IMG/VR virus record: IMGVR_UViG_3300033146_000323 | Coordinates: 1-55,754 of that record | DNA: 55,754 nucleotides | From: a virus | Taxonomy: Duplodnaviria > Caudoviricetes | Strand: one strand, 5' to 3' | Shown here: in pieces, positions 294 to 55,576 of the stretch | How positions within the stretch are numbered: position 1 is the first letter of the stretch | Layout of the letters: each line of letters begins with the position of its first letter | Position numbers and translations under genes: made by a program | The notes under the pieces: model-generated | What the model was told of the DNA's origin: nothing | Databases searched by the model: none | Seen by the model: only the letters and a program-made list of their open reading frames with translations

Positions 294-309
294 GTGTCTT
301 CAAAGACAC
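294..309. repeat. 16-bp palindrome GTGTCTTYRAAGACAC, copy 1 (5' leader of the GATase gene)
   Basis: GTGTCTTCAAAGACAC. Confidence 0.95.
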
Positions 310-370
310 TGCTCATAAATCAAATCACTTATGTGTATAGGTCAGCTATCACAAATCAAAAGAGTATCAG

Positions 371-1303
371 TTGCTCAACACAGACAGACCATACATTGCA
401 CACTTCAGATATGCAACGGTTGGTAAAATCTGCAAGGCAAACACACACCCATTTGTGTGTGGCAACAATCAAGATGAGTTGTTGATGATGAACGGTACGG
501 TCAGAGGTTACGGTAACGAGAATATGACAGACACCGAAGACTTGGCAATCAAGTTGGGTCGTACACCACGACATACTTGGAAACAATCATTGGCAAAGTT
601 CGATGCAAGATTTGTTGCAATCAATACTCGCACCCGTTCATTTCAAATCTTCAACAAGCACCTGTACACGTACAAGGATGGAGTTTGGTACTCCAAAGAC
701 AACGTGTTGCAAACCAATGTTGTTGCGGTGTATGGCACACTGAAGAAAGGATTCGGTAACTACTACTCGTACCTAACTAATTCAAAACATCTTGGTCGAG
801 GCAAGACCAAAGACAAGTACCCGTTGGTAGTCAGTGGGTTACCTTACCTTATCGAAAAGAAAGGGAAGGGTACGAATGTGGTGGTCGATGTATTCAAGGT
901 CAACAATACCACGTTCAAGAAACTTGATGCACTTGAGTCTCATCCACGTTGGTATGTACGAAAGCAAGTTCCTATCCGTTTGAACGGCAAGACAATTACG
1001 GCTTGGATTTATTTCAATCCGTCTGCGGAAAACAAATGGGATGGAAAGAATCACGTTGAGTCTTTCGAAAGGAAACCAATACTCCCGACAAGAGAGTTCA
1101 CCTTTGAGCCGCAGCAAGAAGTTGAACCTACGTGCAGCCAATTATCATTCTACGATGAGTTCCACGACAAAGAGTTTGGCGATGAGACTCCTATCTGCAT
1201 AGATTGTTTTCACGATTTAGACTACGATGATTTTGCAAACTATCACTGCAATGGATGTGATGCTTGGTTTACAGAGGAAGAAGTGCAACACTTTCAAAAG
1301 TAA
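371..1303 (+). CDS. class II glutamine amidotransferase fused to a gamma-glutamylcyclotransferase (AIG2-like) domain and a C-terminal Zn ribbon; 5' end appears disrupted
   Basis: AHFRYATVG, NTHPF and MNG (GATase-II); VAVYGTLKKG and LDALE (GGCT); CxxC...CxxC; the catalytic Met-Cys start at 331 is out of frame. Confidence 0.8.
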   Translation: MLNTDRPYIAHFRYATVGKICKANTHPFVCGNNQDELLMMNGTVRGYGNENMTDTEDLAIKLGRTPRHTWKQSLAKFDARFVAINTRTRSFQIFNKHLYTYKDGVWYSKDNVLQTNVVAVYGTLKKGFGNYYSYLTNSKHLGRGKTKDKYPLVVSGLPYLIEKKGKGTNVVVDVFKVNNTTFKKLDALESHPRWYVRKQVPIRLNGKTITAWIYFNPSAENKWDGKNHVESFERKPILPTREFTFEPQQEVEPTCSQLSFYDEFHDKEFGDETPICIDCFHDLDYDDFANYHCNGCDAWFTEEEVQHFQK

Positions 1304-1313
1304 ACCACAGGCA

Positions 1314-1329
1314 GTGTCTTCAAAGACAC
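1314..1329. repeat. 16-bp palindrome, copy 2 (intergenic; extends to the hairpin GCAGTGTCTT-CA-AAGACACTGC, 1311-1332)
   Basis: GTGTCTTCAAAGACAC. Confidence 0.95.
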
Positions 1330-1332
1330 TGC

Positions 1333-1383
1333 TCTGTTCACGGATGTGTGTCCGTGCTGATGAAGTCAAAAGACAGAAACAGA
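1333..1383 (+). ncRNA. type III hammerhead-like self-cleaving ribozyme (variant stem II)
   Basis: Stem III UCUGU/ACAGA; cleavage triplet GUU (1336-1338); stem I CACGGA/UCCGUG; core CUGAUGA (1357-1363); stem II GUC-AAAA-GAC flanked by A and A; GAAA (1376-1379); intergenic. Confidence 0.7.
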
Positions 1384-1401
1384 AACTTAAAATTTAATAC
1401 G

Positions 1402-1707
1402 ATGGCAATACATTTAACTAAAGATAATTTTGTTTGGCTCGATGTGACAGACCAAATGAAATACGGAATGAAAAAGATTGAAGAGATATGGCTCGGTCAC
1501 GAGTTGTATGCAGTACACGATGATGATACAGACTCGCTTATAGAATCACACGAAGAGATAGAAGAGGCAGTCAAGTTGGGTCTGAAGATATGTATCGAAG
1601 TTGGATACCTACCAAAAAAGGACAAACCCAAATGGTGGAGTAAAGCCAACAAGAAAATTATTGATGGACATTGGTGGGTAAAAATATCTGATGTAAAATT
1701 TGGATAG
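1402..1707 (+). CDS. hypothetical protein (MAIHLTKDNF...)
   Basis: Part of ORF 1264..1707; start moved to ATG 1402, downstream of the ribozyme. Confidence 0.7.
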   Translation: MAIHLTKDNFVWLDVTDQMKYGMKKIEEIWLGHELYAVHDDDTDSLIESHEEIEEAVKLGLKICIEVGYLPKKDKPKWWSKANKKIIDGHWWVKISDVKFG

Positions 1708-1730
1708 TTCCATTTAATGTACTATATTTG
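1699..1730 (+). promoter_or_regulatory. Bacteroidota sigma70-type promoter
   Basis: TTTG(GATA) at 1699, 20-nt spacer, TATATTTG 1723-1730; same geometry as the promoter at 234. Confidence 0.75.
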
Positions 1731-1760
1731 AACAAACATTAAACTTTAAATACAATCAAA

Positions 1761-2412: not shown

Positions 2413-2418
2413 ATCAAA

Positions 2419-2754
2419 ATGAAATCAGTTTATTTACTTGAGGCAACACAAGAAAAAATGCGACCCAAACCCGACACCAATTACATCCAAAGGATGCAAC
2501 AGTTGGCAGACAAGGATGAGGAGTTTACATTCAGTGTCTTCAAAGACACAGGAAGATTGATGCGTTGGTATGATTACAAAGATATCAATCCCAACGTCAG
2601 ACTACACGATGACTGCGTGGATGTAATGCTATATTTAGGCAATGCGTTCATTCAATTGTTGAAGAACGGAACGTGGTACACCCACGATAAGCAAAGTAAG
2701 AACATCAAAGATGTGGAGAAACATTTATTTGATGGAAAGTTTATTGTGAAATAA
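2419..2754 (+). CDS. hypothetical protein
   Basis: ORF in operon; carries palindrome copy 3. Confidence 0.7.
   Translation: MKSVYLLEATQEKMRPKPDTNYIQRMQQLADKDEEFTFSVFKDTGRLMRWYDYKDINPNVRLHDDCVDVMLYLGNAFIQLLKNGTWYTHDKQSKNIKDVEKHLFDGKFIVK
2534..2549. repeat. 16-bp palindrome, copy 3 (coding, reads S-V-F-K-D-T)
   Basis: GTGTCTTCAAAGACAC. Confidence 0.95.
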
Positions 2755-3003: not shown

Positions 3004-3005
3004 AT

Positions 3006-3293
3006 ATGAAGAAGGGAATTTTCAATGAATATGTAGACAGGGTTCTACGTACATTCGGTATAGAAAAAGAAGAGTTGTTCACCAAATCAAAACGAAGAGA
3101 CTTGGTTGATGCAAGACATCTTCTTTACTACTTGTGCTACCACAGACCAATGCAAATCAGATACATTCAAGAGTATATGAGAGAGAATGGATACGAGGTA
3201 GGACATTCAACAATCATTCACGGAATCGAACAGGTATCAGACAAGGTATCAGAAGATATGGACTATGACACAATTTGCAGAGAACTATCTTAA
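3006..3293 (+). CDS. stand-alone DnaA C-terminal (domain IV) helix-turn-helix protein
   Basis: FGIEKEELFTKSKRRDLVDARHLLYYL...HSTIIHG resembles Bac_DnaA_C. Confidence 0.75.
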   Translation: MKKGIFNEYVDRVLRTFGIEKEELFTKSKRRDLVDARHLLYYLCYHRPMQIRYIQEYMRENGYEVGHSTIIHGIEQVSDKVSEDMDYDTICRELS

Positions 3294-3699
3294 GTATTCA
3301 ATGGATGATATAATGCATCAAGCATTGACCGATGAGTTTTCTGTGGTCTTGGATGGCGATGGATACGAGGCGAGGTTGTTGTATGGATGCAAGATATCAA
3401 GGGACTACGAGACGAAGGAGGTAACAATCCAAAACACAACACGTGCAGGGGATTGGTACACACCTGTTAGCGATGATGACTTATATATTTTTCTACAAAA
3501 AGGTTGGAGAATTGGAGTGTATGAATTATCTTTGTCTAACTATCGTTTAAAACTTGATAAGGTCGAGGAGTCAATCAAGCGAGAAGTAAACGGGAGAAAG
3601 AATCCCAAACAAATCCAATCGTTAAAGAATGCTCGACAGAATATTATGAATCGATATAGTAAAATAAAATATAAATTAAATCAAATATCAAATGGCTAA
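3265..3699 (+). CDS. hypothetical protein
   Basis: ORF overlapping neighbours in operon. Confidence 0.7.
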   Translation: MTQFAENYLKYSMDDIMHQALTDEFSVVLDGDGYEARLLYGCKISRDYETKEVTIQNTTRAGDWYTPVSDDDLYIFLQKGWRIGVYELSLSNYRLKLDKVEESIKREVNGRKNPKQIQSLKNARQNIMNRYSKIKYKLNQISNG

Positions 3700-4219
3700 A
3701 TTAAAAACCGTAAACATCAAGGGTAAAGAGTACGTTGAAGTAAACGAGAGACTCATCTATTTTAGAAAGACTTACCCAAACTATTCTTTGACATCAGAAG
3801 TGTTAGAGAAGACAGACAAATCAATACTTATTCTCGCTACCATTTCAGATGACAATGGCAGGGTTATATCTACAGGTATGGCTGAAGAAGAGAAAGGAAG
3901 TACATTCATTAACAAGACATCGTATGTAGAGAACTGCGAGACATCAGCGTGGGGTAGAGCGTTAGCAAACTTTGGTATCGGACTTGATACATCAGTTGCC
4001 TCAGCAGATGAAGTGCAGAATGCTATTGCAAATCAAGACAAAGTGTCTTCAAAGACACCAAGTAAAATCAAATTAGAAATTGGCGATGACAATTGGGAAA
4101 AGGTAATGAAGTGGGTGGTTGCAAACAAAGACAAAGGTCTTACTGCAATCGTCAAGACATTACAACAAAAGTATTCTATCCCGAATCTTGTCAAGGCAGA
4201 ACTTAAAAAGAATATCTAA
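3692..4219 (+). CDS. single-strand annealing protein / recombinase (Rad52/Erf/Sak-like)
   Basis: GKEYVEVNERL...ENCETSAWGRALANFGIG; lies directly before an exonuclease. Confidence 0.65.
   Translation: MAKLKTVNIKGKEYVEVNERLIYFRKTYPNYSLTSEVLEKTDKSILILATISDDNGRVISTGMAEEEKGSTFINKTSYVENCETSAWGRALANFGIGLDTSVASADEVQNAIANQDKVSSKTPSKIKLEIGDDNWEKVMKWVVANKDKGLTAIVKTLQQKYSIPNLVKAELKKNI
4043..4058. repeat. 16-bp palindrome, copy 4 (coding, reads V-S-S-K-T)
   Basis: GTGTCTTCAAAGACAC. Confidence 0.95.
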
Positions 4220-4986: not shown

Positions 4987-5137
4987 AAACCTAATAGTGT
5001 CTTTGAAGACACGACTATTTAAAAAGAAACGAGTACACGTAGTGGAAGTTCCAAACACTTGCGAAACTCGTGCCGAGAAAAAACAAATAATCAAGGCGAC
5101 CTTAAAATTTTTGGAACAGAACATTGTAATATTATAA
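4973..5137 (+). CDS. small basic hypothetical protein (MKKFKNLIV...)
   Basis: Part of ORF 4931..5137; ATG 4973 fills the gap between exonuclease and SSB. Confidence 0.5.
   Translation: MKKFKNLIVSLKTRLFKKKRVHVVEVPNTCETRAEKKQIIKATLKFLEQNIVIL
4997..5012. repeat. 16-bp palindrome, copy 5
   Basis: GTGTCTTTGAAGACAC. Confidence 0.95.
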
Positions 5138-5139: not shown

Positions 5140-5406
5140 ATGGCACAAGAAGAAAAAGTGTTTGCAGATGGGTTCTCTTTCAAGCGAAGAGACAATGCTC
5201 CCGACTTTGTAGTCGGAAGAGTATCAGTAAAATGTGATGATGCAGTTTCATTTATGAAGAAACATCAGAAGAATGGATGGATAAATCTAAATATCAACCA
5301 AGCTAAATCAGGTAGCTACTACGTAGAACTTGACACATTTGTACCTGAGAAAAGAACTGAGAATGTAGGTACTCCGAAAACGGAGGAAGTAGACCTACCA
5401 TTCTAA
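5140..5406 (+). CDS. putative single-stranded DNA-binding protein
   Basis: Start at ATG 5140 (MAQEEKVFADG); acidic C-terminal EEVDLPF tail; next to recombinase and exonuclease. Confidence 0.65.
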   Translation: MAQEEKVFADGFSFKRRDNAPDFVVGRVSVKCDDAVSFMKKHQKNGWINLNINQAKSGSYYVELDTFVPEKRTENVGTPKTEEVDLPF

Positions 5407-5428
5407 GTGTGTTTTAATCATTTGTAAT

Positions 5429-5456
5429 GGGGAGGGTTTCGGCTCTCCCCTTTTTT
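5429..5456 (+). terminator. Rho-independent terminator
   Basis: GGGGAGGGT-TTCG-GCTCTCCCC followed by TTTTTT. Confidence 0.85.
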
Positions 5457-5487
5457 GACCTATGAATGCTAAGTTAATTGACTACAT

Positions 5488-5624: not shown

Positions 5625-8042
5625 ATGACATCAAAGATTACTATATTCAGAAACATTAAAGAGACAGATGCTCCTTTTCACAGAGAGGTAGAGCATATCT
5701 TAGAGCGTATCAAGAACGGTGCGTCAAAGGATTTGGTAAAGCGAATCCGTAAAGAGCAACGCAAGGCAGAGCGTAATGAACTAAAGAAACAACTCCCGGC
5801 AATATGTTTTAGCGGAGTCTTCACCAAGCGTAACGACAACTCTATTCAAGAACATTCAGGACTAATATGTTTAGACTTCGATGGGTATGAGAAGAGTAAG
5901 GATATGTTACAAGACAAGGAGAACATTACTAAATCTCCTTACACCTATTCAGTATTCATATCTCCATCAGGACAAGGACTAAAAGTTTTAGTCAAGATAC
6001 CACAGGATGTAGACAACCACGTGAACTACTTCAATAGTCTACAGAAACATTACAACAATAGTAAGTTTGACGTAACGTGTAAAAACGTATCACGTGTATG
6101 CTATGAATCTTATGACCCACTAATCTATGTCAACGAGAACTCATCGTTGTGGGACAAGATTGAAGAGAGGGAGTACGAAGAGAAACATCAGTATAGAGAT
6201 GCTCCTACTATACCAATCACAGACGAGAATAAAATCGTAGAGATACTTGTCAAGTGGTGGACCAAGAAGTATCCAATGGTGGAGGGACAACGTAACAACA
6301 ACTGCTACGTTCTTGCTTCAGCATTCAACGACTTTGGAATAAACAAATCGTTGGCAGGTTATGTAATGAGTAACTACAAGACTCAAGACTTTAACGATAC
6401 AGAGATACAAAGAACCATAGACTCAGCGTATTCAAACTCTGCAAACTTCGGAACTAAATACTATGAAGATGAGGAGCGTGTTCAGAATCTAAAGATTAAA
6501 CTAAAGCGTGGTGCATCAAAAAAAGAACTTCGTTCTCAACTCGAAAACGAGTCTCAGTTAGAGAGCGATGTAATAGAGGCAGTGCTTACACGTATAGATG
6601 AAGAGGCACAAGAGACTCAGTTTTGGACAAAGACAGAAAAAGGTGTGGTGCAAATCATCCACATACTATTTAAACAATTCTTAGAAGACAATGGATTCTA
6701 CAAGTATTGTCCTGAAGGAAGTAAGAACTATGTCTTTGTCAAGGTAACCAACAACCTAATAGACCACACAGATGAGAAAGAGATAAAGGATTTTATCTTG
6801 AATCATTTGATAGAGATTGATGACTTAAGTATCTACAATCATTTTGCAGACAAGGTTAGATATTTCAAAGAAGACTTTCTAACTCTGCTATCAACGATTG
6901 ATATATACTTTATTGAAGATAGTAAGGATACATCTTACCTGTACTACAGAAACTGTGCAGTCAAGATAACCAAAGATGAAATGGTAATGATTGACTACAT
7001 AGATTTAGGTGGGTATGTTTGGAAAGACCACGTGATAGATAGGAACTTTACAAAGTGTGATGCAGACACAGATTATAAAAAATTTATATCAAACATCTGC
7101 AAGAGTGAGGAAGACCGAGTGTCTTCTATGGAATCAACGATAGGTTTCCTAATGCACGGTCACAAGAACTTATCATTTTGCCCTGCCGTTATTTTAAATG
7201 ATGAGGTAATATCAGACAACCCCGAAGGTGGTACAGGTAAAGGTATCTTTATGAATGCATTGAGTCAGATGAAGAAAGTAGTTACCATTGATGGTAAGTC
7301 TTTTAATTTTGAGCGTTCATTTGCATACCAACTTGTGAGTGCAGATACACAGATACTTGTGTTCGATGATGTAAGAAAACATTTTGACTTCGAAAGATTG
7401 TTCTCCGTTGTAACCGAAGGACTTACACTTGAAAAGAAAAACAAAGATGCAATCAAGATACCATTTGAAAAGTCTCCGAAGATAGCCATCACTACGAACT
7501 ACGCAATCAAAGGGAGCGGTAATTCTTTTGCGAGACGAAAGTGGGAACTTGAATTACATCAACACTATAATAAAAACTTCACACCATTAGATGAGTTTAA
7601 CAAACTATTCTTTGGCGATTGGAATGATGATGAGTGGTGTGCGTTTGACAACTATATGATTGGATGTTTGCAAGGATACCTCAACACAGGATTGGTTGAA
7701 AGTAAATTTGTAAATTTAAAGATACGACAACTATCAGCCGAGACTTCACACGACTTCATCGAATGGTGTGGACTTATCAATGGTAGTGAATCTAATCCTA
7801 TGCTTGTGAGAGATACTAAAATTAATTTACAATCTGCTTACTTAGATTTCATCGAACAGTATCCCGACTATGCACCAAAAGCAAAGCTAACGATAAGCCG
7901 TATACGATTTAATAAATGGATGTCAGCTTACGCAGTCTTCTTATCAGGTGCTTCACCACAAGAGGGAAGAGATATGTCAGGAAGATGGATGAGAATCAAG
8001 AGACAAGATGAAACAACTACCCAAACAAAATTTAATGTCTGA
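5625..8042 (+). CDS. primase-helicase (BT4734/VirE N-terminal primase-like domain, PriCT-like domain, P-loop helicase)
   Basis: ICLDFD, FISPSGQGLK, GQRNN, Walker A GGTGKG, Walker B VFDD, ITTN. Confidence 0.8.
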   Translation: MTSKITIFRNIKETDAPFHREVEHILERIKNGASKDLVKRIRKEQRKAERNELKKQLPAICFSGVFTKRNDNSIQEHSGLICLDFDGYEKSKDMLQDKENITKSPYTYSVFISPSGQGLKVLVKIPQDVDNHVNYFNSLQKHYNNSKFDVTCKNVSRVCYESYDPLIYVNENSSLWDKIEEREYEEKHQYRDAPTIPITDENKIVEILVKWWTKKYPMVEGQRNNNCYVLASAFNDFGINKSLAGYVMSNYKTQDFNDTEIQRTIDSAYSNSANFGTKYYEDEERVQNLKIKLKRGASKKELRSQLENESQLESDVIEAVLTRIDEEAQETQFWTKTEKGVVQIIHILFKQFLEDNGFYKYCPEGSKNYVFVKVTNNLIDHTDEKEIKDFILNHLIEIDDLSIYNHFADKVRYFKEDFLTLLSTIDIYFIEDSKDTSYLYYRNCAVKITKDEMVMIDYIDLGGYVWKDHVIDRNFTKCDADTDYKKFISNICKSEEDRVSSMESTIGFLMHGHKNLSFCPAVILNDEVISDNPEGGTGKGIFMNALSQMKKVVTIDGKSFNFERSFAYQLVSADTQILVFDDVRKHFDFERLFSVVTEGLTLEKKNKDAIKIPFEKSPKIAITTNYAIKGSGNSFARRKWELELHQHYNKNFTPLDEFNKLFFGDWNDDEWCAFDNYMIGCLQGYLNTGLVESKFVNLKIRQLSAETSHDFIEWCGLINGSESNPMLVRDTKINLQSAYLDFIEQYPDYAPKAKLTISRIRFNKWMSAYAVFLSGASPQEGRDMSGRWMRIKRQDETTTQTKFNV

Positions 8043-8280
8043 GATAAATAAAGCAATGATAAACTCTTTGAATGTTTTGACAGGACACAAAACAGTAGAA
8101 GAACTAATAATAGAAGATGATGGGTTCTTCATTTTCAATCCCGAAGAACCTGTGTCTTCAAAGACACTTGATGATTTGCTTTATTACTTTACAAAGATGG
8201 AAGATTATGAGCGGTGTATTGAAGTTAAAAAACTAATAGACGATGGCAGTATTATTGGAAGAGACACGAGGATTCAATGA
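8035..8280 (+). CDS. hypothetical protein with UVR-like C-terminal helix
   Basis: YFTKMEDYERCIEVKKL; likely start at ATG 8035. Confidence 0.6.
   Translation: MSEINKAMINSLNVLTGHKTVEELIIEDDGFFIFNPEEPVSSKTLDDLLYYFTKMEDYERCIEVKKLIDDGSIIGRDTRIQ
8152..8167. repeat. 16-bp palindrome, copy 6 (coding, V-S-S-K-T)
   Basis: GTGTCTTCAAAGACAC. Confidence 0.95.
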
Positions 8281-8488: not shown

Positions 8489-9693
8489 TAGATAAGGCGG
8501 TTGAGATTTGCACGAAACATAATTTCGTGTACTTAGCAATGGAGGTCCGCACCGGCAAGACGCTTACAAGTCTTGGGATAGCACAAGCGTTGGGGTGTAG
8601 AAATGTTTTATTTGTTACAAAGAAGAAAGCCATTAGTAGTATTCAATCTGATTATGAATTACTTAACCCATCGTATGGATTTAGAGTTATCAATTACGAA
8701 TCATTACACAAGGTAGACCACCTTGATTATGAAATGATTATCGTGGATGAAGCTCATACACTTGGAGCTTTTCCTAAGCCATCCAAGAGAGCAAAAGATG
8801 TGGGAGAACTTATAAAGAAGTACAACCCATATGTTTGTTTGATGTCAGGAACCCCAACACCTGAGAGTTACAGTCAGATGTATCATCAGGTGTATGGGAT
8901 TCCAAATAATCCTTTCAAAGAACACAAATCTTTCTACAAGTTTGCTCGTGAGTATGTAAACGTGAGGCAGAGAAAAATCAATTCACTGTATGTAAACGAT
9001 TACTCGAATGGTCTGCAAACTATTCTTGACAGAATGAAACCATACACTATTTCTTTCACGCAGAAAGAGGCAGGATTTATAAATGAAATAAATGAATCTA
9101 TCCTACGGGTTACGATGAATGATATTACATATACGATGACTGCCCTGCTAAAAAAAGATAGAGTATTAGAAGGGGGAGAAGAAGTAATACTTGGCGATAC
9201 TCCTGCCAAGCTAATGCAAAAGCTACATCAACTATATTCAGGAACGTGTAAGTTTGAAAGCGGAAACAGTCAAGTGTTTGACTATACCAAAGCGGAGTTT
9301 ATTCAAGATAGATTTAGAGATAAGAAGATTGCTATCTTCTACAAATTCAAAGCCGAGTATGAAGCACTGAAAGAAGTCTTCGGTAAAAAAAATATCACAC
9401 AAGAACTTAGTGTCTTCAAAGACACAGACTGCAAAGTGATTGCTCTACAAATAGTTAGTGGTCGAGAAGGTATATCCTTACGTGAAGCTGATGCCTTAAT
9501 CTACTACAACATAGACTTCAGTGCCACAAGTTATTGGCAAAGCCGTGACCGTATGACAACAAAGGAAAGAGAGCACAGTAAAGTGTATTGGATTTTCTCT
9601 GATGGCGGTATAGAAAAGGATATCTACAAGGCAGTAATCAAGAAGAAGGATTACACTGTCAACCATTTTAAAAGGGATTTATTATCTTTGTAA
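8455..9693 (+). CDS. SF2/SNF2-like helicase
   Basis: RTGKT, IVDEAH, SGTP, GREGISL, QSRDR motifs. Confidence 0.85.
   Translation: MFRYRKYQWEIIDKAVEICTKHNFVYLAMEVRTGKTLTSLGIAQALGCRNVLFVTKKKAISSIQSDYELLNPSYGFRVINYESLHKVDHLDYEMIIVDEAHTLGAFPKPSKRAKDVGELIKKYNPYVCLMSGTPTPESYSQMYHQVYGIPNNPFKEHKSFYKFAREYVNVRQRKINSLYVNDYSNGLQTILDRMKPYTISFTQKEAGFINEINESILRVTMNDITYTMTALLKKDRVLEGGEEVILGDTPAKLMQKLHQLYSGTCKFESGNSQVFDYTKAEFIQDRFRDKKIAIFYKFKAEYEALKEVFGKKNITQELSVFKDTDCKVIALQIVSGREGISLREADALIYYNIDFSATSYWQSRDRMTTKEREHSKVYWIFSDGGIEKDIYKAVIKKKDYTVNHFKRDLLSL
9410..9425. repeat. 16-bp palindrome, copy 7 (coding, S-V-F-K-D-T)
   Basis: GTGTCTTCAAAGACAC. Confidence 0.95.
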
Positions 9694-9694: not shown

Positions 9695-9901
9695 ATGAGG
9701 TTCGTTAAATTTCTACTTGTTTGGATTAGTCAGAATTTAGCGATTCCTTTTTGGGTGGTGGGTCATATACACTTGTCCATCCATAATCTACACGATGTTG
9801 TAGAAATCTTATCATCCATTGGTATGAATGTAATCGTAGCCATTGGATTTTTAATCGACTATAATAATGACCGAGCAACAGATACAAAAGAAAAGAATTA
9901 A
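9695..9901 (+). CDS. small membrane protein
   Basis: Two hydrophobic segments; TATCTTTG -7 element at 9683-9690. Confidence 0.6.
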   Translation: MRFVKFLLVWISQNLAIPFWVVGHIHLSIHNLHDVVEILSSIGMNVIVAIGFLIDYNNDRATDTKEKN

Positions 9902-10106
9902 AGAATTGGAAGAGCAAGGTTATTACGTAATCAAATTAATTAAAACGAATAAAAATGGAATACCTGATTTGATAGCTATACCTCCGGGAAGTGAAGTTTT
10001 GTTTAGTGAAGTGAAAAAACCTGATGGTAAAGCGTCTAAGCTACAAGAGTACAGACTAAAAGAACTAACTAAATATGGCTTTAAAACTGAGATATATAGA
10101 GGATAA
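9867..10106 (+). CDS. VRR-NUC domain nuclease
   Basis: EQQIQ...GIPDL...EVK...SKLQ motif. Confidence 0.8.
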   Translation: MTEQQIQKKRIKELEEQGYYVIKLIKTNKNGIPDLIAIPPGSEVLFSEVKKPDGKASKLQEYRLKELTKYGFKTEIYRG

Positions 10107-10440
10107 CTATTACGAGGTAGAGGATTGGTTTGTGGAAAAACTACGAGAGTACCCGAGACTTATAGGGTTTGAAATAGCAAAGCAAGTAGAGTATAGTTGG
10201 GATACATTGCCTGAAAAATATGGGTGGACCCAACGTGTTGGTGGTGTATGTACACGCACCGAAGAACCATTCTTTTTTGAGGTTGAATATTTAAACCAAC
10301 CGGATGAAGCTCCTGTGTTCCTTGACGTTGAAGCTATTGAGGTAGACGATTACCTTGACTATATAATCGAAAAAAAAATACTTAAATCAAATAACAATGA
10401 AAGCGAGATTAGAACCACAGATAGCACAGAGTCTGATTGA
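10075..10440 (+). CDS. hypothetical protein
   Basis: ORF in operon. Confidence 0.6.
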   Translation: MALKLRYIEDNYYEVEDWFVEKLREYPRLIGFEIAKQVEYSWDTLPEKYGWTQRVGGVCTRTEEPFFFEVEYLNQPDEAPVFLDVEAIEVDDYLDYIIEKKILKSNNNESEIRTTDSTESD

Positions 10441-10924
10441 TATCATCAATGAGTACCTGTCTGTAGATATAAGAACCAAATCCCGAAAGCAGGAGATAGT
10501 AAACGGAAGAATGATATACTTTAAACTTCTGAGGGAACTCCACTATAACTATGCTGCCATCGCAAAAAGTATGGGTAAAAACCACGCAACAGTGATACAC
10601 GCAGTTAAAACTTTGAATAATTATTTAGAGTATGATGCTCAGATGATACGTGATTATGAGCTGATTCGGGACATCTTTTTTGATTCACACGGACTACATC
10701 CCCTGCATCTATCCTCACGTCAAGAGTTGATTTCTCGCTCAATTCATTTGGAAAAAGAAATAAAAAGTTTAAATTTGTTTATAACACAGTTGAAAGATAG
10801 TCTAAATAATTACAAAAAGTATGACCCTATCTTCGATTTGTTAAAGGAAAGAAGTCTCAAGTCAGAGACTCTTGGCTATGTAGAAAAGAAACTAAATCAT
10901 ATATTAAATGGCATACAACGTTAA
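10397..10924 (+). CDS. second DnaA domain-IV-like HTH protein with C-terminal coiled coil
   Basis: KSRKQEIVNGRMIY...AIAKSMGKNHATVIHAVK. Confidence 0.75.
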   Translation: MKARLEPQIAQSLIDIINEYLSVDIRTKSRKQEIVNGRMIYFKLLRELHYNYAAIAKSMGKNHATVIHAVKTLNNYLEYDAQMIRDYELIRDIFFDSHGLHPLHLSSRQELISRSIHLEKEIKSLNLFITQLKDSLNNYKKYDPIFDLLKERSLKSETLGYVEKKLNHILNGIQR

Positions 10925-11338: not shown

Positions 11339-11717
11339 GAAATGCAGTAAGTGTGGAGTTGTAAAAGATATTTCAGAGTATTATCTGACCGGCAGGTACA
11401 CTCTTGCAGGAAAGAATATACCAAGAGCAAAGTGTAAGAGTTGTGTTGGTGATGTAAAGAATGAAAGGAGAGCCAACATACGTGCTTGGCTTAAACAGTT
11501 TAAAAGAAACTCTGCTTGTGCTAAGTGTGGATACTCAAAGGAAACGCATCCGGACTTTACTGCTAAGGCATTAGAGTTTCATCATCCGCAAGACAATAAA
11601 GAGTTTGCTATAGGTGAAGCACCGGGTAAAGGAATGGCTATTGAAAAAATCAAAAAAGAAATAGACAAATGCGTAATTTTGTGTGCACGATGTCATATGG
11701 AAATACACAATAAATGA
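11328..11717 (+). CDS. Zn-finger HNH endonuclease-like protein
   Basis: CSKC...CKSC; CAKC...LEFHH...LCARCHMEIH. Confidence 0.75.
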   Translation: MSSKKCSKCGVVKDISEYYLTGRYTLAGKNIPRAKCKSCVGDVKNERRANIRAWLKQFKRNSACAKCGYSKETHPDFTAKALEFHHPQDNKEFAIGEAPGKGMAIEKIKKEIDKCVILCARCHMEIHNK

Positions 11718-12124
11718 GATTCGAATCCAATAAAGACTTACAAAGAGAAAGAAAAGCTATAGAAAAATTTGTTAGCAGGTTCAAAGGAACATATAAAAAA
11801 CTTGGCGACAACGATGTGGACTATCGTGTGTTTGATGAGAACAACAAACTCATTGCTTACGCTGAAGTAAAAGGAAGATACAGAACAATAGCTAACGCAT
11901 ATCCTCTTCCGGTAGCAGCTCGTAAAGTTGTAAAGCTCTGTGACAAAAGACTAAACCCTGTAATGATATGGGCGTGTGATGATGGAATCATCTACGGTAA
12001 ACCTACGCACTTGCAGGGAGAAGTAAAGTGGGGTGGTAGGAAACCACGTGAAGGAGCAGTCAATGATGAAGAGCTAATGATATACTACGAGAAACAAAAA
12101 GAGTTTAGATACTTTAGATATTAA
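11714..12124 (+). CDS. PD-(D/E)XK-like nuclease
   Basis: VDY...YAEVKGR motif. Confidence 0.55.
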   Translation: MRFESNKDLQRERKAIEKFVSRFKGTYKKLGDNDVDYRVFDENNKLIAYAEVKGRYRTIANAYPLPVAARKVVKLCDKRLNPVMIWACDDGIIYGKPTHLQGEVKWGGRKPREGAVNDEELMIYYEKQKEFRYFRY

Positions 12125-15100
12125 TCTATTGGATAGAGCTTACCACCAACTTCTTTGTATCCCATTTCTTCAAGCATCTTCTTACGTAACTCTCTCTGTT
12201 CTTTCATTATTCTATCAGCCTCACCATAAACTTGTTCGTACAAATCAGGGTCGTATCTTTTCAAATCTGATTTATTTTTGATACCACCAATCGGCATAAT
12301 ACCTTTTACTGAAGAACCTTTCCTTCCGTATCCCGGTCTGTATGATTTAGTGATACCTAAGAAATCATAGATGTTATCGTAGAACTCGTCTTGTGTAGTG
12401 TCTCCAAAGACACCATCTTTTATAGCGTTATGCAATCCAATGAATGGGTCTACCTGTGCACCTAAAGCTAACTCGATTGTAGGAATCGCAATTGCTTTAA
12501 ACCAATCATCAGGGTTTTCTTTATAATTTCTATACATCTTACCTAATACTGCAGATACGGGATTTACTACATCATCAACAGGTTTTCTTGTTCCTCTTAT
12601 CCAATTAACACCCTCCTCTGCTGCCGCACCTAAGTATGGGAGTTGATATAGTAGGTTAAGACCAAGCATTGCGTCTTTAAGTTTTCTCATAAACGCATCT
12701 CTGTCTTCTTTGTCTCCACGTGTGAGTAGTGCAATGTTGGACATACCAACAAACAATACGTTTGCTACTGCATAGTTTAAATAGAATGCTCTCAAATCTT
12801 TTTTGGTTGGTCGAGCTTCCATTCCTTTTTTAAACTCTCCTTTTGCAAAGTGACCTATCGCAGTGGAGAATGCTCTTCCCATATTTGTTGCACTCTGCAT
12901 TACCTTGTTAATCTGCAAGAACAAGGTGCTACCAAACATAGTAAAACCTTTTGAGAGAAAGTCTCCTTGTAATTGTAGAGGAATCTTTTCTGTATTTCTT
13001 CTTGTCTGCTGAGTAGCATTGTAATCATTGAACTCTTCTAAGGCTTGTGCCTCACTCATACCATTGGCAATGTTACGCTTATAGTTAATGTAGTATCCCA
13101 TTACACCCATAATATCTCCAATGATAGTAGGTCTTGCTGCTAATCTTTTAAAGTTTCTACGAGCCGTTGCAAATCTACCCACACCTTTACCTGCAGGTTT
13201 AAATGTTTGACTACCTGATTCAAGACCGTATACATCTCCTTCTAATCCTTGCTCCACACGTGCATCAAATGTAGCTGACATCTTACGTGCTTTGGCGATT
13301 GCACCTTCTTTGCCTACAAGGTCTTTAGCCATTTCAAACATTACCCCTGCTCCATCTACCATAAACATTGCAAAGTCAATAGGTCCTTGTAATGCCTTTG
13401 GAAACTTACTGTCTTTTGGGAAATAGTTATACTGCTCAAACGCATTGATAAATGACGTGGCTTGTTTAGCTATCTGAATAACTTTAAATGCCAAAGCAAA
13501 AGATGTAAACTTACTTTGGAATCTTTCCATTAAACCCGGTGCATTTAATTTATCTGCTTTAAATGCAGACTGTGGGTTTACAGAGACATTGACTAATGTT
13601 TTTGTAAGTTTAAGTAATCCTGATGCTCTAAGTAAAGAATCAACCGCAGGTATCTGAAAGAACGCATTCAACTCTTGGACACCCGGAGCTAACGCTTTGT
13701 ATCTCTCCATAGTTTCCATATGGTTCATCAGCGTACCTGTAAACGTGCCTCCTTTTAAATCTATTTCACTAACTGTATCTACCCTGTCTTTAAATGCAGG
13801 TGCAGTTTCTGCAGAGAAGATACCATTGAAGTCTCCCTCGCTTAATAGTTGAGCATCTACCTCACTTCGTACAGTTTTGGTTGGGAAATAGTTTTCTATA
13901 AAACCTAAGTTAACTCCATTGACTTGTTTATAAACTGCATTGACTTCATTGAAAGATTCAGTGCTTAAATAATTTACCATCCTGTCTGCAAAATCTATAA
14001 GCTCAGGACCTAATGCGGTTTTGATGTCTTCAATATTTTGGTCTGTAAATCCTTGTCTCTCTAACTTAGCACGTTGAATAGGGTTCTTGCTCAGTGCATA
14101 GATTCTAAGCAACTGATTGGCATTGAATACTGATTTTCTTGGCTTATCAGTCTTAGCGTTTCTAACAGTGAATGTCATAGTGTTAGGAACTCCAACCTTA
14201 TTAACACCTAATGCTTTGTTTACGGCTAACTCTACACCCTCAATACCACCTTCAATACCTGATGCAGCAGCAATATCATTTATCTTCTTTCTCATCACTC
14301 GCATATTCTGCAGAGCGACCTCTTCCATTCTATTTAACTTACGGTATACTTTATCTCTAAACACATTGAGACCTTTGTTACTTCTATCTAAGAAGTTAGC
14401 GATGGTTCCTAAATGAGTAATGGTATTCTTCATTCTCGTGAGAAGACCATCTTTATCTCTTCCAAATAAATCCGTAACGATTTTAAGATATACTTTTTTG
14501 AGTATACCTTTTGCGGTAAAGTCTTTTGCTAAGTTGTCTCTGTCATCGTTTATTTCATTTATGTTTTTGACAGTGCCATCTTCTTCGAATAAATCAGGAT
14601 TAGTTTCTTGAATTTGATTAGTAACCTCCTCAGTTAATGCTGCTTTATCTGCGGCTTGTTTTAATCTTCTATTGTTAAAACGAAGTATTGATTCGGATTT
14701 CTGTTGTTTCACATCTTCAAGTAACGCTTGTGCTTCTTCTAACGTAGCATTATCAAGGTTAGAGAATTGGTCATAAGCCAACTGTAACTGCAACAAAGAC
14801 TCTTCTCTCAGCGTTAAGTCTTCATCATTCAATATTTTTGCAGACGCTGCATCAATCTCAGCTCTGTTTGCATCTAACTTATCTTTAATATCTTTTAGTT
14901 TTTGTGCACGTAACTCAGGGTTGGTAACCAATACTGCATCCATTACCGTTTTGATATTGGAGAATATTACCTGACCTACTGCATCAATACCTTTTGGTCT
15001 TGGCTTACCGGATTGTTTTCTTGGTCTTGCCTTAGCTTTTACTTCTTTATAAATGTCTTTAAGAACTTGCTTCTTAATCTTGCCACGCTCTTGGTCTACA

Positions 15101-35980: not shown

Positions 35981-36022
35981 AAAAAATAAAGGAAGGAGTG
36001 TCTTTAAAGACACTCCCCCTTT
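35981..36022 (-). terminator. terminator after the major capsid gene; its stem contains a 16-bp palindrome copy (35998-36013)
   Basis: On - strand AAAGGGGGAGTGTCTT-TA-AAGACACTCCTTCCTTTATTTTTT. Confidence 0.75.
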
Positions 36023-36031
36023 AATTACATA

Positions 36032-38627: not shown

Positions 38628-38679
38628 TTGATTTAATTTTGTACAAAGTTAATAATAAATTTTCGTTCATTTTATTCAG

Positions 38680-51591: not shown

Positions 51592-51593
51592 AA

Positions 51594-51999: not shown

Positions 52000-52160
52000 T
52001 ACTTTTTTCCTTTAGCACCCTTTGCGTAGTTAGGGTCTTTACAATATTTACTTGCAGCCATATTTGCATAGGCTGATGGATAGGTGTCGAAAGTTCTTTT
52101 TGCCCAAGCAATCCCTGCCGGACAAATCTTGTTCCCTTTCTTTTTTCTCTTCCTTGCCAT
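51999..52160 (-). CDS. small basic protein (53 aa, KICPAGIAWAKRTFDTYPSAYAN)
   Basis: Read manually; first gene after the -7 element at 52178. Confidence 0.65.
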   Translation of the reverse strand: MARKRKKKGNKICPAGIAWAKRTFDTYPSAYANMAASKYCKDPNYAKGAKGKK

Positions 52161-52167
52161 AAATTTT

Positions 52168-52185
52168 TATCTTTGTACAAAGTTA
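52168..52185. promoter_or_regulatory. pair of oppositely oriented -7 promoter elements 2 bp apart
   Basis: TATCTTTG-TA-CAAAGTTA; the core CTTTGTACAAAG is a perfect palindrome. Confidence 0.65.
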
Positions 52186-52206
52186 AGAATTTTAATCTAT
52201 TATATT

Positions 52207-52641
52207 TTGAGCTCTGACTATCTCAAATATTGGCGAGTAATACGTCAATACATCAAAGTAAAGTACGGACTTACACAGTCCGACCTTGACATACTTTTGT
52301 TTCTAAATACAGAAGGGTACTTTGATAAAGACAAATTCTTAGAGTTTGATAGAATCCTGTCTTGGGATGAGCAGAGGTTTGACAATCTGCTACGGGATGG
52401 TTGGATAGAGGTTTTCAGAAAACGAAAAGGAAAAACAAAAGGACTATATATGTTATCATACAAATCCAAAAGAGTTATAACCTCTATATATAAAAAACTC
52501 AATGGGGAAGAAATACCTACTTCGCCATCTCAGAATCGAATGTTTCTAAAGAATGTTTCTTATACCGACAAAAGATATCGGGAAGCTATAGAAAATATGA
52601 ATAGCTTTATAAGACAACAACGACATCTCTCTCCTGAATAA
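52207..52641 (+). CDS. winged-helix (MarR-like) DNA-binding protein
   Basis: YGLTQSDLDILLFL...LLRDGWIE...YMLSYK; likely TTG start at 52207; the only convincing + strand CDS in the late region. Confidence 0.6.
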   Translation: MSSDYLKYWRVIRQYIKVKYGLTQSDLDILLFLNTEGYFDKDKFLEFDRILSWDEQRFDNLLRDGWIEVFRKRKGKTKGLYMLSYKSKRVITSIYKKLNGEEIPTSPSQNRMFLKNVSYTDKRYREAIENMNSFIRQQRHLSPE

Positions 52642-52867
52642 TCGTACAGGATTCGCCATTGATTACAAGAGTATAACATTGTCTTGTGTCATAATAAACG
52701 ATATCATCTTTTTTTAGGTAATCAGATACATCAGAACCTGATAAAACTATTTTACCTTTTTGATATCTAAAGTCTTTCACATCATCATTAGATAGTAGTA
52801 GTCCACTTTCAGTGGTAATCTCTTCATCAATCTTTTCGATGATTATGTTTTTCCCTATTGCTCTCAT
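52607..52867 (-). CDS. groES: co-chaperonin GroES
   Basis: TTESGLLL mobile loop, GKIV..G, KKDDIV, IIQERDV. Confidence 0.85.
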   Translation of the reverse strand: MRAIGKNIIIEKIDEEITTESGLLLSNDDVKDFRYQKGKIVLSGSDVSDYLKKDDIVYYDTRQCYTLVINGESCTIIQERDVVVVL

Positions 52868-52964: not shown

Positions 52965-53106
52965 CTTTTTTGTATTCTCCTTGTTTGTAGACAACATAGT
53001 CATTCTCTCTCAACAAAGATATTGCTTCTTTGATTTTCTTTTCTTTTTGTCTGAACGCATCAAATACAGGACTTTCTATTGGATAATCCATATTATTGGG
53101 TTTCAT
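52918..53106 (-). CDS. hypothetical protein
   Basis: ORF overlapping the groEL stop. Confidence 0.55.
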   Translation of the reverse strand: MKPNNMDYPIESPVFDAFRQKEKKIKEAISLLRENDYVVYKQGEYKKDEKEKTNIGTNKTFK

Positions 53107-54700
53107 AGCTACGTGCCATAGTCACGATAGCATTGGTTGATAATATAGTAACGGCTACTGATACTGCATTTTGCAGAGCTTGTCTTGTAACTTTCACAGG
53201 GTCTATGACTCCGAGTGTCATCAAGTATCCGTACTTCTCGTTTTTTACATCGTATCCATACAATGCACCCTTACAATCTTTATAGATTTCATCAGCATCC
53301 TTTCCTGCATTCTCTAAGATTTGGTATAGCGGTGCCTTAAGAGTTTCTGCCAAAACTGCGTAAGCAGTTTTTTTTGCGGAATTTTTTTCACCTGCTGCCT
53401 TAACGGTATAGCTTTTGTGAAGGTTGTACAAGGTGAGTCCACCTCCGGGAAGTATACCTTCCTCAAGTGCAGAACGCACTGCACAGACCGCATCATCTAC
53501 TCTATCGTACAGTTCTTTTTGTTCGAGGTCTGTGTTTCCTCCAACATATACAACTCCGATTCCACCTGACAATGAAGCTATCCTTTGATTGATAAACTCC
53601 TTGTCTTCTTTCTTCTTAGTATTTTTATGAGCATCTTGTAATTGAGCTACTCGCTCCATCACTTCCTCAGTATTTTCTTTTTCATCTTTAACGATGACCG
53701 TTGAGTCACGGCTAACTATCACCTTAGCACAGTGACCCAAATCTTCGAACTTAATCAAACTCAAGTCATCGCCTGTCTTTTCGCTAAAGTATGTAGCACC
53801 AACACTAACCGCAATATCCTGCATCAACTCGTGTTGTCTGTAACCAAAGTCCGGTGGGTTGATTGTACAAATCTTCAAACCGTTCTTCATTACATTGGCT
53901 GCTAAGGTATTTGTTACGTTTTGAGAACAGGGAGCAATCATTAGTAGTTTCTTGCCTTCTGATATAATTGGTTTCAGAATATTCTCAATCTGTAGTATGT
54001 TGTTTATCTCGGTGTCACATACAAGTACATAAGTGTCTTCGAAGACACACTCGTCTCTTTTTTGGTCATTGATAAATAGGGTAGAAGCATATCCTCTTTT
54101 TACTTTGATACCCTTTGTGGTTTCGTAATATGTAGATGAGGTTTTACTTTTCTCAACTGTTACTACACCATCTTTACCAACGCTTTCGTATACATCTGCT
54201 ATGATACCTCCGACCTGTGGGTCGTTATTCGCAGATATAATGGCAACGTCACGAAGTCTCTTTTCGTCTAACTTCTTGCCTTTAATTTTTAATTGCTTTC
54301 CAATTGATTTCGTCTCACTAACTAAATGTCGCAAGACTTCTGTTCTATTGGTATCCTCTGTGATGAGGTCTGTTCCTGCATCAACCATTGCTTCAGCCAA
54401 CACGATTGCAGTAGTAGTTCCGTCACCTGCGGAGGATGCCGTTCTATCTGCTGCTTCTTTCATCATACGGACCGCAAGGTTTTCTACAGGGTCTAATAAT
54501 GAAATAGATTTAGCTACTGTTACACCATCTTTAGTTACGGTTATACCGTGAAGGTGTTCGGGTGATTCAATAAGTACAGTGTTACCTCGTGGTCCTAATG
54601 TAGATTTAACTGCTTGAGCAATTGTTTTTATACCACTAATTAGTTTGTTACGACCTTCATCCGAGAAATGAAGTTCTTTTGGAGTGAATCCTTGTTGCAT
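53093..54700 (-). CDS. groEL: chaperonin GroEL
   Basis: TLGPRG, VTKDGVTVA, AGDGTTTA, EEGILPGGG, GVIDPVKV; start at ATG 54700; no GGM tail. Confidence 0.95.
   Translation of the reverse strand: MQQGFTPKELHFSDEGRNKLISGIKTIAQAVKSTLGPRGNTVLIESPEHLHGITVTKDGVTVAKSISLLDPVENLAVRMMKEAADRTASSAGDGTTTAIVLAEAMVDAGTDLITEDTNRTEVLRHLVSETKSIGKQLKIKGKKLDEKRLRDVAIISANNDPQVGGIIADVYESVGKDGVVTVEKSKTSSTYYETTKGIKVKRGYASTLFINDQKRDECVFEDTYVLVCDTEINNILQIENILKPIISEGKKLLMIAPCSQNVTNTLAANVMKNGLKICTINPPDFGYRQHELMQDIAVSVGATYFSEKTGDDLSLIKFEDLGHCAKVIVSRDSTVIVKDEKENTEEVMERVAQLQDAHKNTKKKEDKEFINQRIASLSGGIGVVYVGGNTDLEQKELYDRVDDAVCAVRSALEEGILPGGGLTLYNLHKSYTVKAAGEKNSAKKTAYAVLAETLKAPLYQILENAGKDADEIYKDCKGALYGYDVKNEKYGYLMTLGVIDPVKVTRQALQNAVSVAVTILSTNAIVTMARSYETQ
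54033..54048. repeat. 16-bp palindrome copy (in groEL, V-F-E-D-T)
   Basis: GTGTCTTCGAAGACAC (perfect palindrome). Confidence 0.95.
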
Positions 54701-54828
54701 AATGTATTCAATTTGATTATATATGCAAAGATAAAAAATAAATCTAAATAAATATGACAAGAAATCTATTCCCTATACTACTACTACTCTCCTCCTATTA
54801 TATATCTTTACTTCATATGGGAGGCTTC

Positions 54829-54942
54829 AAACTTAACATTTCAACATATTTTTTTCTAACTGATTGATAATCAATAAGTTAATCTAATAAAAGTCAACAT
54901 AAAGTCAACATAAACTTAACATATATAAAAAAAACTTAACAC
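54829..54942. other. origin-like locus B: 11-bp iterons and a double IHF-consensus site
   Basis: AAACTTAACAT at 54829; TAACTGATTGATAATCAATAAGTTA 54857-54881; AAAGTCAACAT x2 plus AAACTTAACAT 54890-54922; AAACTTAACAC at 54932. Confidence 0.55.
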
Positions 54943-55014
54943 CTCTATAGCTCAATTGGATAGAGCAATAGCCTTCTAAGCTATCGGTTTCAGGTTCGAG
55001 TCCTGATAGGGGTA
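54941..55014 (+). tRNA. tRNA-Arg(UCU)
   Basis: Acceptor ACCTCTA/TAGGGGT; D-arm GCTC...GAGC; anticodon arm ATAGC-CTTCTAA-GCTAT; T-arm TCAGG-TTCGAGT-CCTGA; CCA not encoded. Confidence 0.92.
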
Positions 55015-55015
55015 C

Positions 55016-55046
55016 AAAAAAAAGAGGGACTTAGGTCCCTCTTCTT
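55016..55046. terminator. probably bidirectional terminator between the tRNA and the 67-aa gene
   Basis: A8-GAGGGAC-TTAG-GTCCCTC-TTCTT. Confidence 0.75.
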
Positions 55047-55080
55047 CATCAAACATCAAACACTATAATCGTAGACACAC

Positions 55081-55284
55081 TTATAGTTTCTTAAAAAGGT
55101 CAATGTTAGCATTTGCAAGTTCATTACCTTCAGCTATCATTCTAACCTTTTTGGCTCTCTTGAGATTCCTTCTCATCTCAGCCAATTTTGTGATTCCCAT
55201 TTCAGGAGATGGAGCCATATTGATTAGCCTACCATCTTTGATTGTATATCCTTGTTCAGCAGGACTTCCTTTATAATACTCCAT
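55081..55284 (-). CDS. hypothetical protein (67 aa)
   Basis: ORF with upstream -7 element (55315) and downstream terminator. Confidence 0.7.
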   Translation of the reverse strand: MEYYKGSPAEQGYTIKDGRLINMAPSPEMGITKLAEMRRNLKRAKKVRMIAEGNELANANIDLFKKL

Positions 55285-55560
55285 AGCAATTCTTTTTTTA
55301 GTTGTTACCTGTTACAAAGGTAATAAATTTTTTTAGATAGCTATATTATTTAGGCTCCCCCCCACCCCACGTGCACGACCCCCAAACCGAAAGCCGTTTT
55401 TTTTTGCAGGGGGGGGTTGTCGTTTTGTATCTGCGGTTCTGATTTTTTTGGCTTTTTTTCTGCTACCTGTTGGTTCCCTGTAGCGGTTCCCTCTTCCCCT
55501 CTTCCCCTCTTCCGTTCTACGATTTTGTTACCCCTGTTAACCTTCCCCTTACCCTGTAAC

Positions 55561-55576
55561 GTGTCTTTAAAGACAC
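55561..55576. repeat. 16-bp palindrome copy (non-coding right end)
   Basis: GTGTCTTTAAAGACAC (perfect palindrome). Confidence 0.95.

Follow-up and report, generated by a model that had tools for sequence, protein, structure and literature searches.

We showed that the 16-bp palindrome GTGTCTTYRAAGACAC, scattered along a 55,754-nt tailed-phage sequence (IMG/VR virus record IMGVR_UViG_3300033146_000323, an entire linear record, here called the window), is a real element that occurs far beyond chance, is under selection at the level of the nucleotides and is common to a large family of marine phages. The structure, covariation, strand bias and genomic contexts of the hairpin that it forms are described below as observed. 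A sequence-only reading of the window had taken the palindrome for a chromosome-organising or DNA-marking site; the signals favour a transcribed hairpin instead, namely covarying stems, orientation, fixed spacing to hammerheads and start codons, and use in terminators. We give about even weight to the proposal that the palindrome is an RNA hairpin which punctuates transcripts and is read by a version-specific factor. The further idea of a fast-evolving genome-wide reader of RNA hairpins, co-diversified with its hairpin into at least nine versions among close relatives, is tentative and rather doubtful; if true, it would mean natural orthogonal hairpin-protein pairs that control transcript fate alongside hammerheads, at 12–18 sites, some of them in conserved genes.

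A pattern scan of the window found 12 exact copies and a copy with one mismatch at 12398, all at the places where the sequence-only reading had put them (Table 1), and 0 of 100 dinucleotide-preserving shuffles contained any match. One further match, with two mismatches, at 30619 can be put down to chance, since 0.24 such matches are expected when up to two mismatches are allowed. The centres of the exact copies are pyrimidine-purine as had been described (CA in six, TG in three, TA in two and CG in one), CA and TG being one site seen from opposite strands. The graded density was likewise recovered, with seven copies in 1–9.5 kb, that is in the early block on the + strand, and two in the last 1.8 kb. 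A copy was called coding-like if the reading frame on the sense strand stayed open for 30 codons or more to either side of it. By this rule 8 of the 13 copies qualified, and those at 294, 1314, 4997, 35998 and 55561 did not, so that the claim that most copies lie within genes is right only in part. In the family, coding sequence is avoided: among 310 sites (from sequences with at least three copies, duplicate loci removed, sense strand assigned by local purine excess), 105 (34%) are coding-like versus 9255 of 12476 random positions (74%; odds ratio 0.18, p = 1e-48).

Relatives were gathered by their primase, the best 80 of 246 in IMG/VR being used. The closest GenBank record by this protein is the uncultured podovirus MW202828.1 (72% identity over 98% of the length), and the closest cultured phages are the Flavobacterium Elemovirus phages, with a primase 41% identical in the N-terminal third only; the window sequence itself was found mostly in marine metagenomes, with no RNA run among the data sets listed. 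The 16-mer of the window occurs in five other IMG/VR records (18, 13, 7, 5 and 4 copies), and a reversed control pattern gave 0. The expectation that the motif would be present in close relatives was borne out in part: MW202828.1 and Elemovirus hold no copy of the window's version, even at one mismatch, and MW202828.1 has 14 exact copies of its own version, which differs at one symmetric position. All 14 are in its early region, and 8 sit 16–23 nt before start codons. At least nine arm versions were counted among 84 related sequences. Over the 80 primase loci and the complete records, and by the arms of the commonest palindrome, GTGTCT was found in 26 sequences, GTGTCG in 7, GTGTCC in 6, GTCTCT in 6 and GTCCGT in 4, with GTTCAC, ATCCGT, GTGTGT and GTCTGT in 2 sequences each, and 37 sequences, many of them short, had no repeated palindrome. 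The versions are dispersed across the primase tree, some genomes hold mixed versions or hybrid sites, and the repeated hairpin is absent from six complete or near-complete relatives, Elemovirus included.

Sites 294, 1314, 2534, 4043, 4997 and 8152 are retained in relatives at only 70–77% DNA identity, and the best conserved is 4997, where every relative examined has its local version. At 1314 and 4997, phages of the GTGTCC version have their own version in place. Versions switch in place at orthologous sites, and all copies of one genome change together, such concerted switches having occurred at least nine times. The peptide readings VSSKT (site 4043) and CLQRH (site 43122) were confirmed; at the place equivalent to 4043 the closest relative has its own version and reads VSLTT, and the peptide at the terminase site is CLQRH in the window, CRQRH in GTGTCG phages and CVRAH in the GTGTGT phage, with other residues in phages without the site. 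At 8152 the centre varies between CA, TG and TA among relatives, and motif-free relatives encode a similar peptide with no palindrome. The in-place version changes, the terminase peptide that follows the version and the similar peptide without palindrome together indicate selection on the nucleotides and not on the protein, as the sequence-only reading had held. Its expectation that the motif persists with some turnover of position also agrees with the data, for example at 9410, where the site of relatives lies 36 nt upstream (Table 1).

The element is not a host repeat. In one genome each of 185,579 species, the matches listed were single chance-level matches apart from one 56-kb phage-like contig, and a host repeat was rejected on this ground, in line with the sequence-only reading; no arrayed matches were among the 120 stretches listed, and a mimic of CRISPR repeats (an RNA anti-CRISPR) was rejected as well. 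The contig in question, WTJX01000555.1 (56,458 bp; L284 and L331 in our set of relatives), is binned in a metagenome-assembled genome of Cytophagales, matches these phages in size and contains the palindrome of the window 5 times. Most probably a phage contig has ended up in the bin, which then gives a weak hint of the host at most. The flanks of the palindrome copies in the window are unrelated to one another, which rules out a mobile element; no transposase family was found, and repetitive extragenic palindromes (REP/RAYT) or miniature inverted-repeat transposable elements (MITE) were rejected given these flanks, coding copies made by in-frame substitution and the absence of the repeat from host genomes. 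Other repeated 11-mers in relatives were rejected as tRNA-array flanks or coding repeats.

Several signals connect the palindrome with RNA. All window segments that were folded (10 segments, together covering 7 of the 13 copies, each copy on one strand or on both) pair the 16-mer as a hairpin in the minimum free energy (MFE) structure. For the hairpin at 287–314 the MFE is −11.1 kcal/mol (z −2.8), and for 22 orthologous leaders RNAalifold predicts an upper helix of 6 bp set off by an internal loop from a lower helix of 3 bp, with compensatory changes in 7 of 9 pairs. Across the family, Watson-Crick pairing outside the 16-mer reaches 46–47% at flank positions 2–3, and at flank positions 2–5 none of 500 within-genome shuffles matched the observed complementarity, several pair types being present. 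On the sense strand of the intergenic flanks, G·U pairs number 132 versus 87 A·C pairs, when about equal numbers are estimated from base composition, and CA centres number 80 versus 31 TG centres, with 25 genomes richer in CA and 4 richer in TG (sign test p = 1e-4). The sites sit in 5′ leaders 14–23 nt before start codons, directly past stop codons or in terminator stems. Among the 205 intergenic sites, classed approximately by regular expressions, 69 have the start codon of a long open reading frame (ORF) 5–32 nt downstream, 36 a hammerhead core, 24 a T run and 10 a minihelix resembling the T arm of tRNA. A scan with the Bacteroidetes −7 consensus TAnnTTTG found matches 20–35 nt before many late-gene start codons, and the box before site 294 shows that this hairpin is part of a 5′ leader rather than of a promoter. 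At site 35998 the core forms part of a stem of about 16 bp, and a U run comes next (MFE −22 kcal/mol, z −5.5), so that a stable G+C-containing hairpin with a U run stands 3′ of the gene at 36032–37510 as in an intrinsic terminator; the core also stands in terminators of the relatives G002, G003, G009, G012 and G013.

In some relatives (L166 at about 5383–5480, L168, L157, L189 and L176), palindromes stand directly before a minihelix, the spacing of 4–8 nt being that seen with hammerheads. The minihelix resembles a tRNA reduced to its acceptor stem and T arm, the D and anticodon arms being absent. ARAGORN called no tRNA on these minihelices, which could be processing signals for RNase P or RNase Z.

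A further tie to RNA is with ribozymes. Where the start codon lies 60–95 nt downstream of a site, type III hammerheads were found in between, the hairpin sitting 4–8 nt 5′ of them. The Rfam model RF00008 matches six copies in three relatives over its full length (29.6–44.5 bits, E 1.7e-6 to 0.03, all under the gathering threshold of 48.5 bits), and the core of the relatives' hammerheads aligns to it. In an alignment of 22 copies, picked by eye out of 33 listed, the hairpin with its lower stem and hammerhead stems III, I and II pair in 96.2% of cells, compared with 78.4% in shuffles (0 of 500 reached the observed value) and 35–48% when slid, with compensatory changes in 18 of 25 pairs. For the ribozyme stems, 12 of 14 pairs are compensatory, pairing is complete in stems I and III (100% of cells) and reaches 85% in stem II, and stem III is open; the catalytic core (CUGANGA ... 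GAAA) is invariant in all 22 copies, including that of the window, and the cleavage triplet ends in a base other than G. A covariance model built from this alignment (R1) was searched against 57 large pieces, seven short end pieces being excluded, and scored 49 bits or more at 27 places spread over 13 of 21 genomes, with 92.9 bits (E 1.8e-18) for window positions 1302–1390. The composite in the window consists of the hairpin at 1310–1333 and the ribozyme at 1334–1382, with predicted cleavage after U1338. In the motif-free genomes G016 and G017 a hairpin, though of other sequence, also precedes the hammerheads, and from this comparison the hairpin-ribozyme pairing looks older than the standardised arms.

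Table 1. Palindrome copies and associated features in the window
Feature	Position	Strand	Remarks
Host-type promoter −7 box TATCTTTG	258–265	+	28 nt 5′ of the first palindrome; from TAnnTTTG scan; position kept in relatives
Hairpin in 5′ leader of GATase-GGACT gene	287–314	+	core 294–309; lower stem 287–290/311–314; ATG at 331
Hairpin with 3-bp lower stem	1310–1333	+	core 1314–1329; 11 nt past the GGACT gene stop
Type III hammerhead ribozyme variant (predicted)	1334–1382	+	A·A mispair 10.1/11.1; next ATG at 1402
Palindrome copy in ORF 2419–2754	2534–2549	+	position kept in relatives
Palindrome copy in ORF 3692–4219	4043–4058	+	reads VSSKT; 161 nt 5′ of exonuclease gene
Intergenic palindrome copy	4997–5012	+	11 nt past the exonuclease gene stop
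Palindrome copy in small ORF 8008–8280	8152–8167	+	3′ of primase gene
Palindrome copy in SNF2 helicase gene	9410–9425	+	site of relatives 36 nt upstream (turnover)
One-mismatch copy near 3′ end of 3199-aa ORF	12398–12413	−	
Palindrome copy in 3199-aa ORF	17727–17742	−	kept in relative L138
Terminator-like hairpin after major virion protein gene (36032–37510)	35987–36023	−	core 35998–36013
Palindrome copy in large terminase gene	43122–43137	−	aa 71–75, CLQRH; extended to a 20-bp palindrome
Palindrome copy in phage GroEL gene	54033–54048	−	
Intergenic palindrome copy	55561–55576	+	early-region start beside contig end; kept in relative L137

On the reading as an RNA hairpin, the palindrome would be the DNA image of a standardised stem-loop with invariant arms of 5–6 bp and a U-Y-R-A centre, often extended by a lower stem specific to the site. 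It lies in 5′ leaders, after stop codons, before hammerheads or tRNA-like minihelices and in terminators with a U run, and after cleavage by the ribozyme the hairpin would form the 3′-terminal end of the upstream message. It may then control the fate of transcripts by protecting 3′ ends, by attenuation or antitermination, or through translation of the next gene. A factor that recognises the sequence of the arms would be needed, and a phage protein that evolves fast is the probable candidate, because the copies are identical within a genome, are written into coding sequence and are all switched together in relatives. The family suggests more broadly that marine Bacteroidota phages process early transcripts by ribozymes, tRNA-like elements and standard 3′ hairpins.

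The phage proteins that the sequence-only reading had named as candidate readers are not supported. The winged helix-turn-helix (wHTH) protein encoded at 52207–52641 does not track the motif: it occurs without it, in 5 of 5 motif-free genomes, and its similarity is independent of the arm version, at 82% identity in a phage of another version versus only 60% in a phage of the same version. The DnaA domain-IV (DnaA-IV) protein encoded at 10397–10924 is very divergent, yet its DNA-reading segment is the same whatever the version. In presence/absence comparisons of 47 loci and 21 genomes, the top loci were the gene for a fusion of class-II glutamine amidotransferase and gamma-glutamyl cyclotransferase (GATase-GGACT; 12 of 15 motif-bearing versus 0 of 6 motif-free genomes) and those for a 333-aa protein and for the 211-aa first early protein (each 9 of 15 versus 0 of 6); these are probably lineage or cassette effects. 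Scans of similarity against version ranked tail proteins and the 211-aa protein at the top and were not convincing, the identities of the 211-aa protein being independent of the arm version. ESM Atlas gave no result for ORFs 5140–5406 and 3265–3699. No ParB-, MatP- or Noc-like partner was found among 58 window ORFs compared with Pfam and 10 further ORFs compared with PHROGs only, and the earlier remark that no ParB is visible holds for the ORFs scanned. These tests could miss a small fast-evolving protein or a host factor.

The 333-aa early protein (L137 positions 1068–2069 and homologues) travels with the GATase-GGACT gene and has no Pfam match; its gene belongs to the missing part of the window's genome, and its conserved acidic and His motifs are reminiscent of glutamine-synthetase-like amidoligases.

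A number of observations weigh against the hairpin as an RNA signal. Among sites of the GTGTCTT version the centre is pyrimidine-purine in 143 of 143 and the set is closed under reverse complement, and such a symmetric centre is more readily explained by a dimer on duplex DNA than by a tetraloop. One-mismatch sites differ solely at the innermost arm pair in 74 of 86 cases; many of these variants are hybrids of two versions, 33 do not pair, and the strand bias is absent (21 G·U versus 20 A·C). Copies in coding sequence mostly lack the lower stem, no known context could be assigned to 66 of the 205 intergenic sites, and the p-values given above are optimistic owing to the kinship of orthologous sites in related genomes. 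On the side of the ribozyme, only 1 of the 12 window copies adjoins one, an Rfam search of the window returned one tRNA only and left the hammerhead at 1334–1382 unmatched, and this hammerhead has an A·A at 10.1–11.1 beside the core, where the standard pair is missing in 11 of the 22 aligned copies. No orthogroup was present in all 15 motif-bearing genomes and absent from all 6 motif-free genomes, so that the search for a gene co-occurring with the motif, as the sequence-only reading had envisaged, gave no perfect phyletic match. The variation at the innermost pair makes the invariant unit one of 5-bp arms around six bases, which would suit a dimer binding its half-sites as well as a hexaloop closed by a 5-bp stem. 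Much of this favours a site on duplex DNA for a dimeric phage regulator with the half-site GTGTCTT, which would occupy many places in the early region in the manner of mycobacteriophage stoperators, for instance as a roadblock that stops early transcription: perfect dyad symmetry including the centre, hybrid half-sites, an innermost pair without strand bias, flips between CA, TG and TA centres at one orthologous position, and bare 16-mers within genes, whose encoded residues have been adapted to the site. The concerted version switch of all copies and the helix-turn-helix proteins encoded by the phage are also in its favour, as are the similarly distributed repeats of Cluster O mycobacteriophages, for which the authors, in the part of their paper drawn on here, prefer dimeric DNA binders (PMC4351075). 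Such a regulator leaves the covarying lower stems, the excess of G·U on the sense strand, the loop orientation linked to transcription, the fixed hammerhead spacing and the reuse in terminator stems unexplained, and neither the wHTH protein nor the DnaA-IV protein behaves as its reader should; we consider it less likely than the RNA hairpin, though still a serious contender.

The copies might also be recombination linkers, short identical sequences at gene or domain boundaries that allow relatives infecting one cell to swap cassettes, with regulation secondary. The early genes bordered by the sites are small and variable, an exonuclease and two resolvase-like nucleases are among the phage's gene products, mixed versions and hybrid sites in some genomes are what exchange would leave (a suggestive point only), and stem-loops joined with expression signals are described as recombining in other phages (PMC2839356, PMC4122927, as far as the parts used here go). 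A stretch of 16–20 bp is however very short for homologous exchange, recombination needs neither a palindrome nor covariation of lower stems, the copies inside conserved genes are substitutions and not cassette joints, and a −7 box lies 8–45 nt upstream at only 14 of 205 intergenic sites, which makes linkers quite improbable. Least probable of all, and hardly to be expected, is an N4-like hairpin promoter for an RNA polymerase injected with the virion. It would draw on the 3199-aa virion protein, whose ORF (12121–21720, −) lies at the end of the virion module, has the size of the N4 polymerase and has counterparts of 3100–3900 aa in relatives, and on the hairpins that precede early genes 14–23 nt before start codons. 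This giant ORF gave no Pfam, PHROG or PDB-sequence match, no clear catalytic motif in a motif scan and no polymerase signal; moreover host-type −7 boxes precede both early and late genes, wobble pairs are on the sense and not the template strand, and copies also occur in late genes and terminators. The RNA hairpin, the dimer site, the linkers and the N4-type promoter are partly compatible and not fully exclusive.

Among known systems the RNA hairpin resembles the nut/boxB sites of lambda. These are hairpins of 15–16 nt in early transcripts, their arms are 5 bp long, and one phage has a single form of them whereas its relatives have others. The boxB hairpin co-evolves with the small, fast-evolving RNA-binding N protein, and lambdoid phages have two sites. 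The present element differs in having 12–18 sites, with copies in coding sequence and no N-like protein identified. At the level of DNA, the stoperators of Cluster A mycobacteriophages are alike in that a short site recurs unchanged dozens of times, both inside genes and between them, and that related phages have different versions of it, and they differ in being asymmetric, oriented with transcription and bound by the immunity repressor of a temperate phage (in part PMC4351075, otherwise general background). For an operator or stoperator in our phages, no DNA-binding protein was found to track the sites by presence or by sequence (wHTH, DnaA-IV and the phyletic scan).

The closest look-alike, going by the portion of the source used here, are the repeats of Cluster O mycobacteriophages (Corndog and relatives), which are 17 bp long with an invariant 7-bp inverted repeat and number 34 copies, about one third of them in genes (PMC4351075). 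They share a short variable centre, tens of copies, a higher density in one transcription block, positions mostly common to relatives with some loss, absence from hosts and a function that is not established there (PMC4351075, in part). They differ in an unrelated sequence and another host phylum, and version switching, a ribozyme link and lower-stem covariation are not reported in the parts of that paper drawn on. The promoter-early stem-loops (PeSLs) of T4-type phages, which join a host promoter with a terminator stem-loop and mediate shuffling, are similar as repeated stem-loops between small variable early genes (PMC2839356, PMC4122927, both in part). PeSLs, on the same partial sources, are composites of about 100 bp defined by a consensus host promoter, whereas here an exact palindrome of 16–20 bp also occurs within conserved genes; the rarity of the −7 box upstream of intergenic sites means that it is not a promoter-plus-stem-loop composite. 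Type III hammerheads are known to flank phage genes and are thought to cut long polycistronic RNAs into gene-length mRNAs, and the part of that report used here describes no standard hairpin directly upstream, whereas in our family hairpins far outnumber ribozymes (Perreault et al. 2011, PMC3088659). No account of the element in Bacteroidota phages came up in the literature search. We assign the palindrome to the known dispersed phage repeats such as PeSLs and the Cluster O repeats, from which the ribozyme link and the version switching set it apart. Dispersed dyad-symmetric repeats have been seen in several phage groups with no mechanism established, and this family offers leverage through hundreds of uncultured relatives, at least nine in-place versions, repeat-free relatives and a ribozyme link that points towards RNA. 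Should there be a version-specific reader, these phages would be a ready-made panel of orthogonal hairpin-protein pairs and a model for how a single factor changes specificity jointly with its scattered targets, a dozen or more in number.

The record is 92% complete and its ends are broken within the early region, so that about 4–5 kb of early genes and probably further palindrome copies are missing. Genes on the + strand from 1 to 12.1 kb form the early and replication block, and those on the − strand from 12.1 to 55.3 kb have virion, lysis and chaperonin functions. The early block encodes two DnaA domain-IV helix-turn-helix proteins (3006–3293 and 10397–10924), a VRR-NUC/Hjc-like nuclease (9867–10106) and a PDDEXK_14 nuclease (11714–12124); no DNA polymerase gene was seen. 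The GATase-GGACT gene (331–1303) is out of frame at its 5′ end, the start at 331 (M-C-I-G, with the catalytic Cys beside the Met) and the domain ORF at 371–1303 being in different frames. In three public runs, 281 and 338/339 are points where contigs end or are joined, which suggests that the mismatch is an assembly chimera or strain variation and not a real frameshift.

On the − strand, GroES (52607–52867) and GroEL (53093–54760) are encoded by the phage, the GroEL gene holding one palindrome copy. The N terminus of ORF 30734–33211 (−) matches the crassvirus muzzle protein (Pfam crAss_MUZ), and since this ORF and ORF 26874–30449 (−) match the N- and C-terminal parts of one PHROG profile of 1474 positions, the protein is split in this phage. 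A tRNA-Arg (anticodon TCT) at 54941–55015 (+), near the start of the early region, has the genes around it on the other strand. At 52160–52195 and 38630–38660, −7 boxes stand back-to-back on both strands within a palindrome of 10–12 bp with the core TTTGTACAAA, and from their arrangement they look like bidirectional host-type promoters; one such pair serves the lone + strand wHTH gene together with its divergent neighbour.

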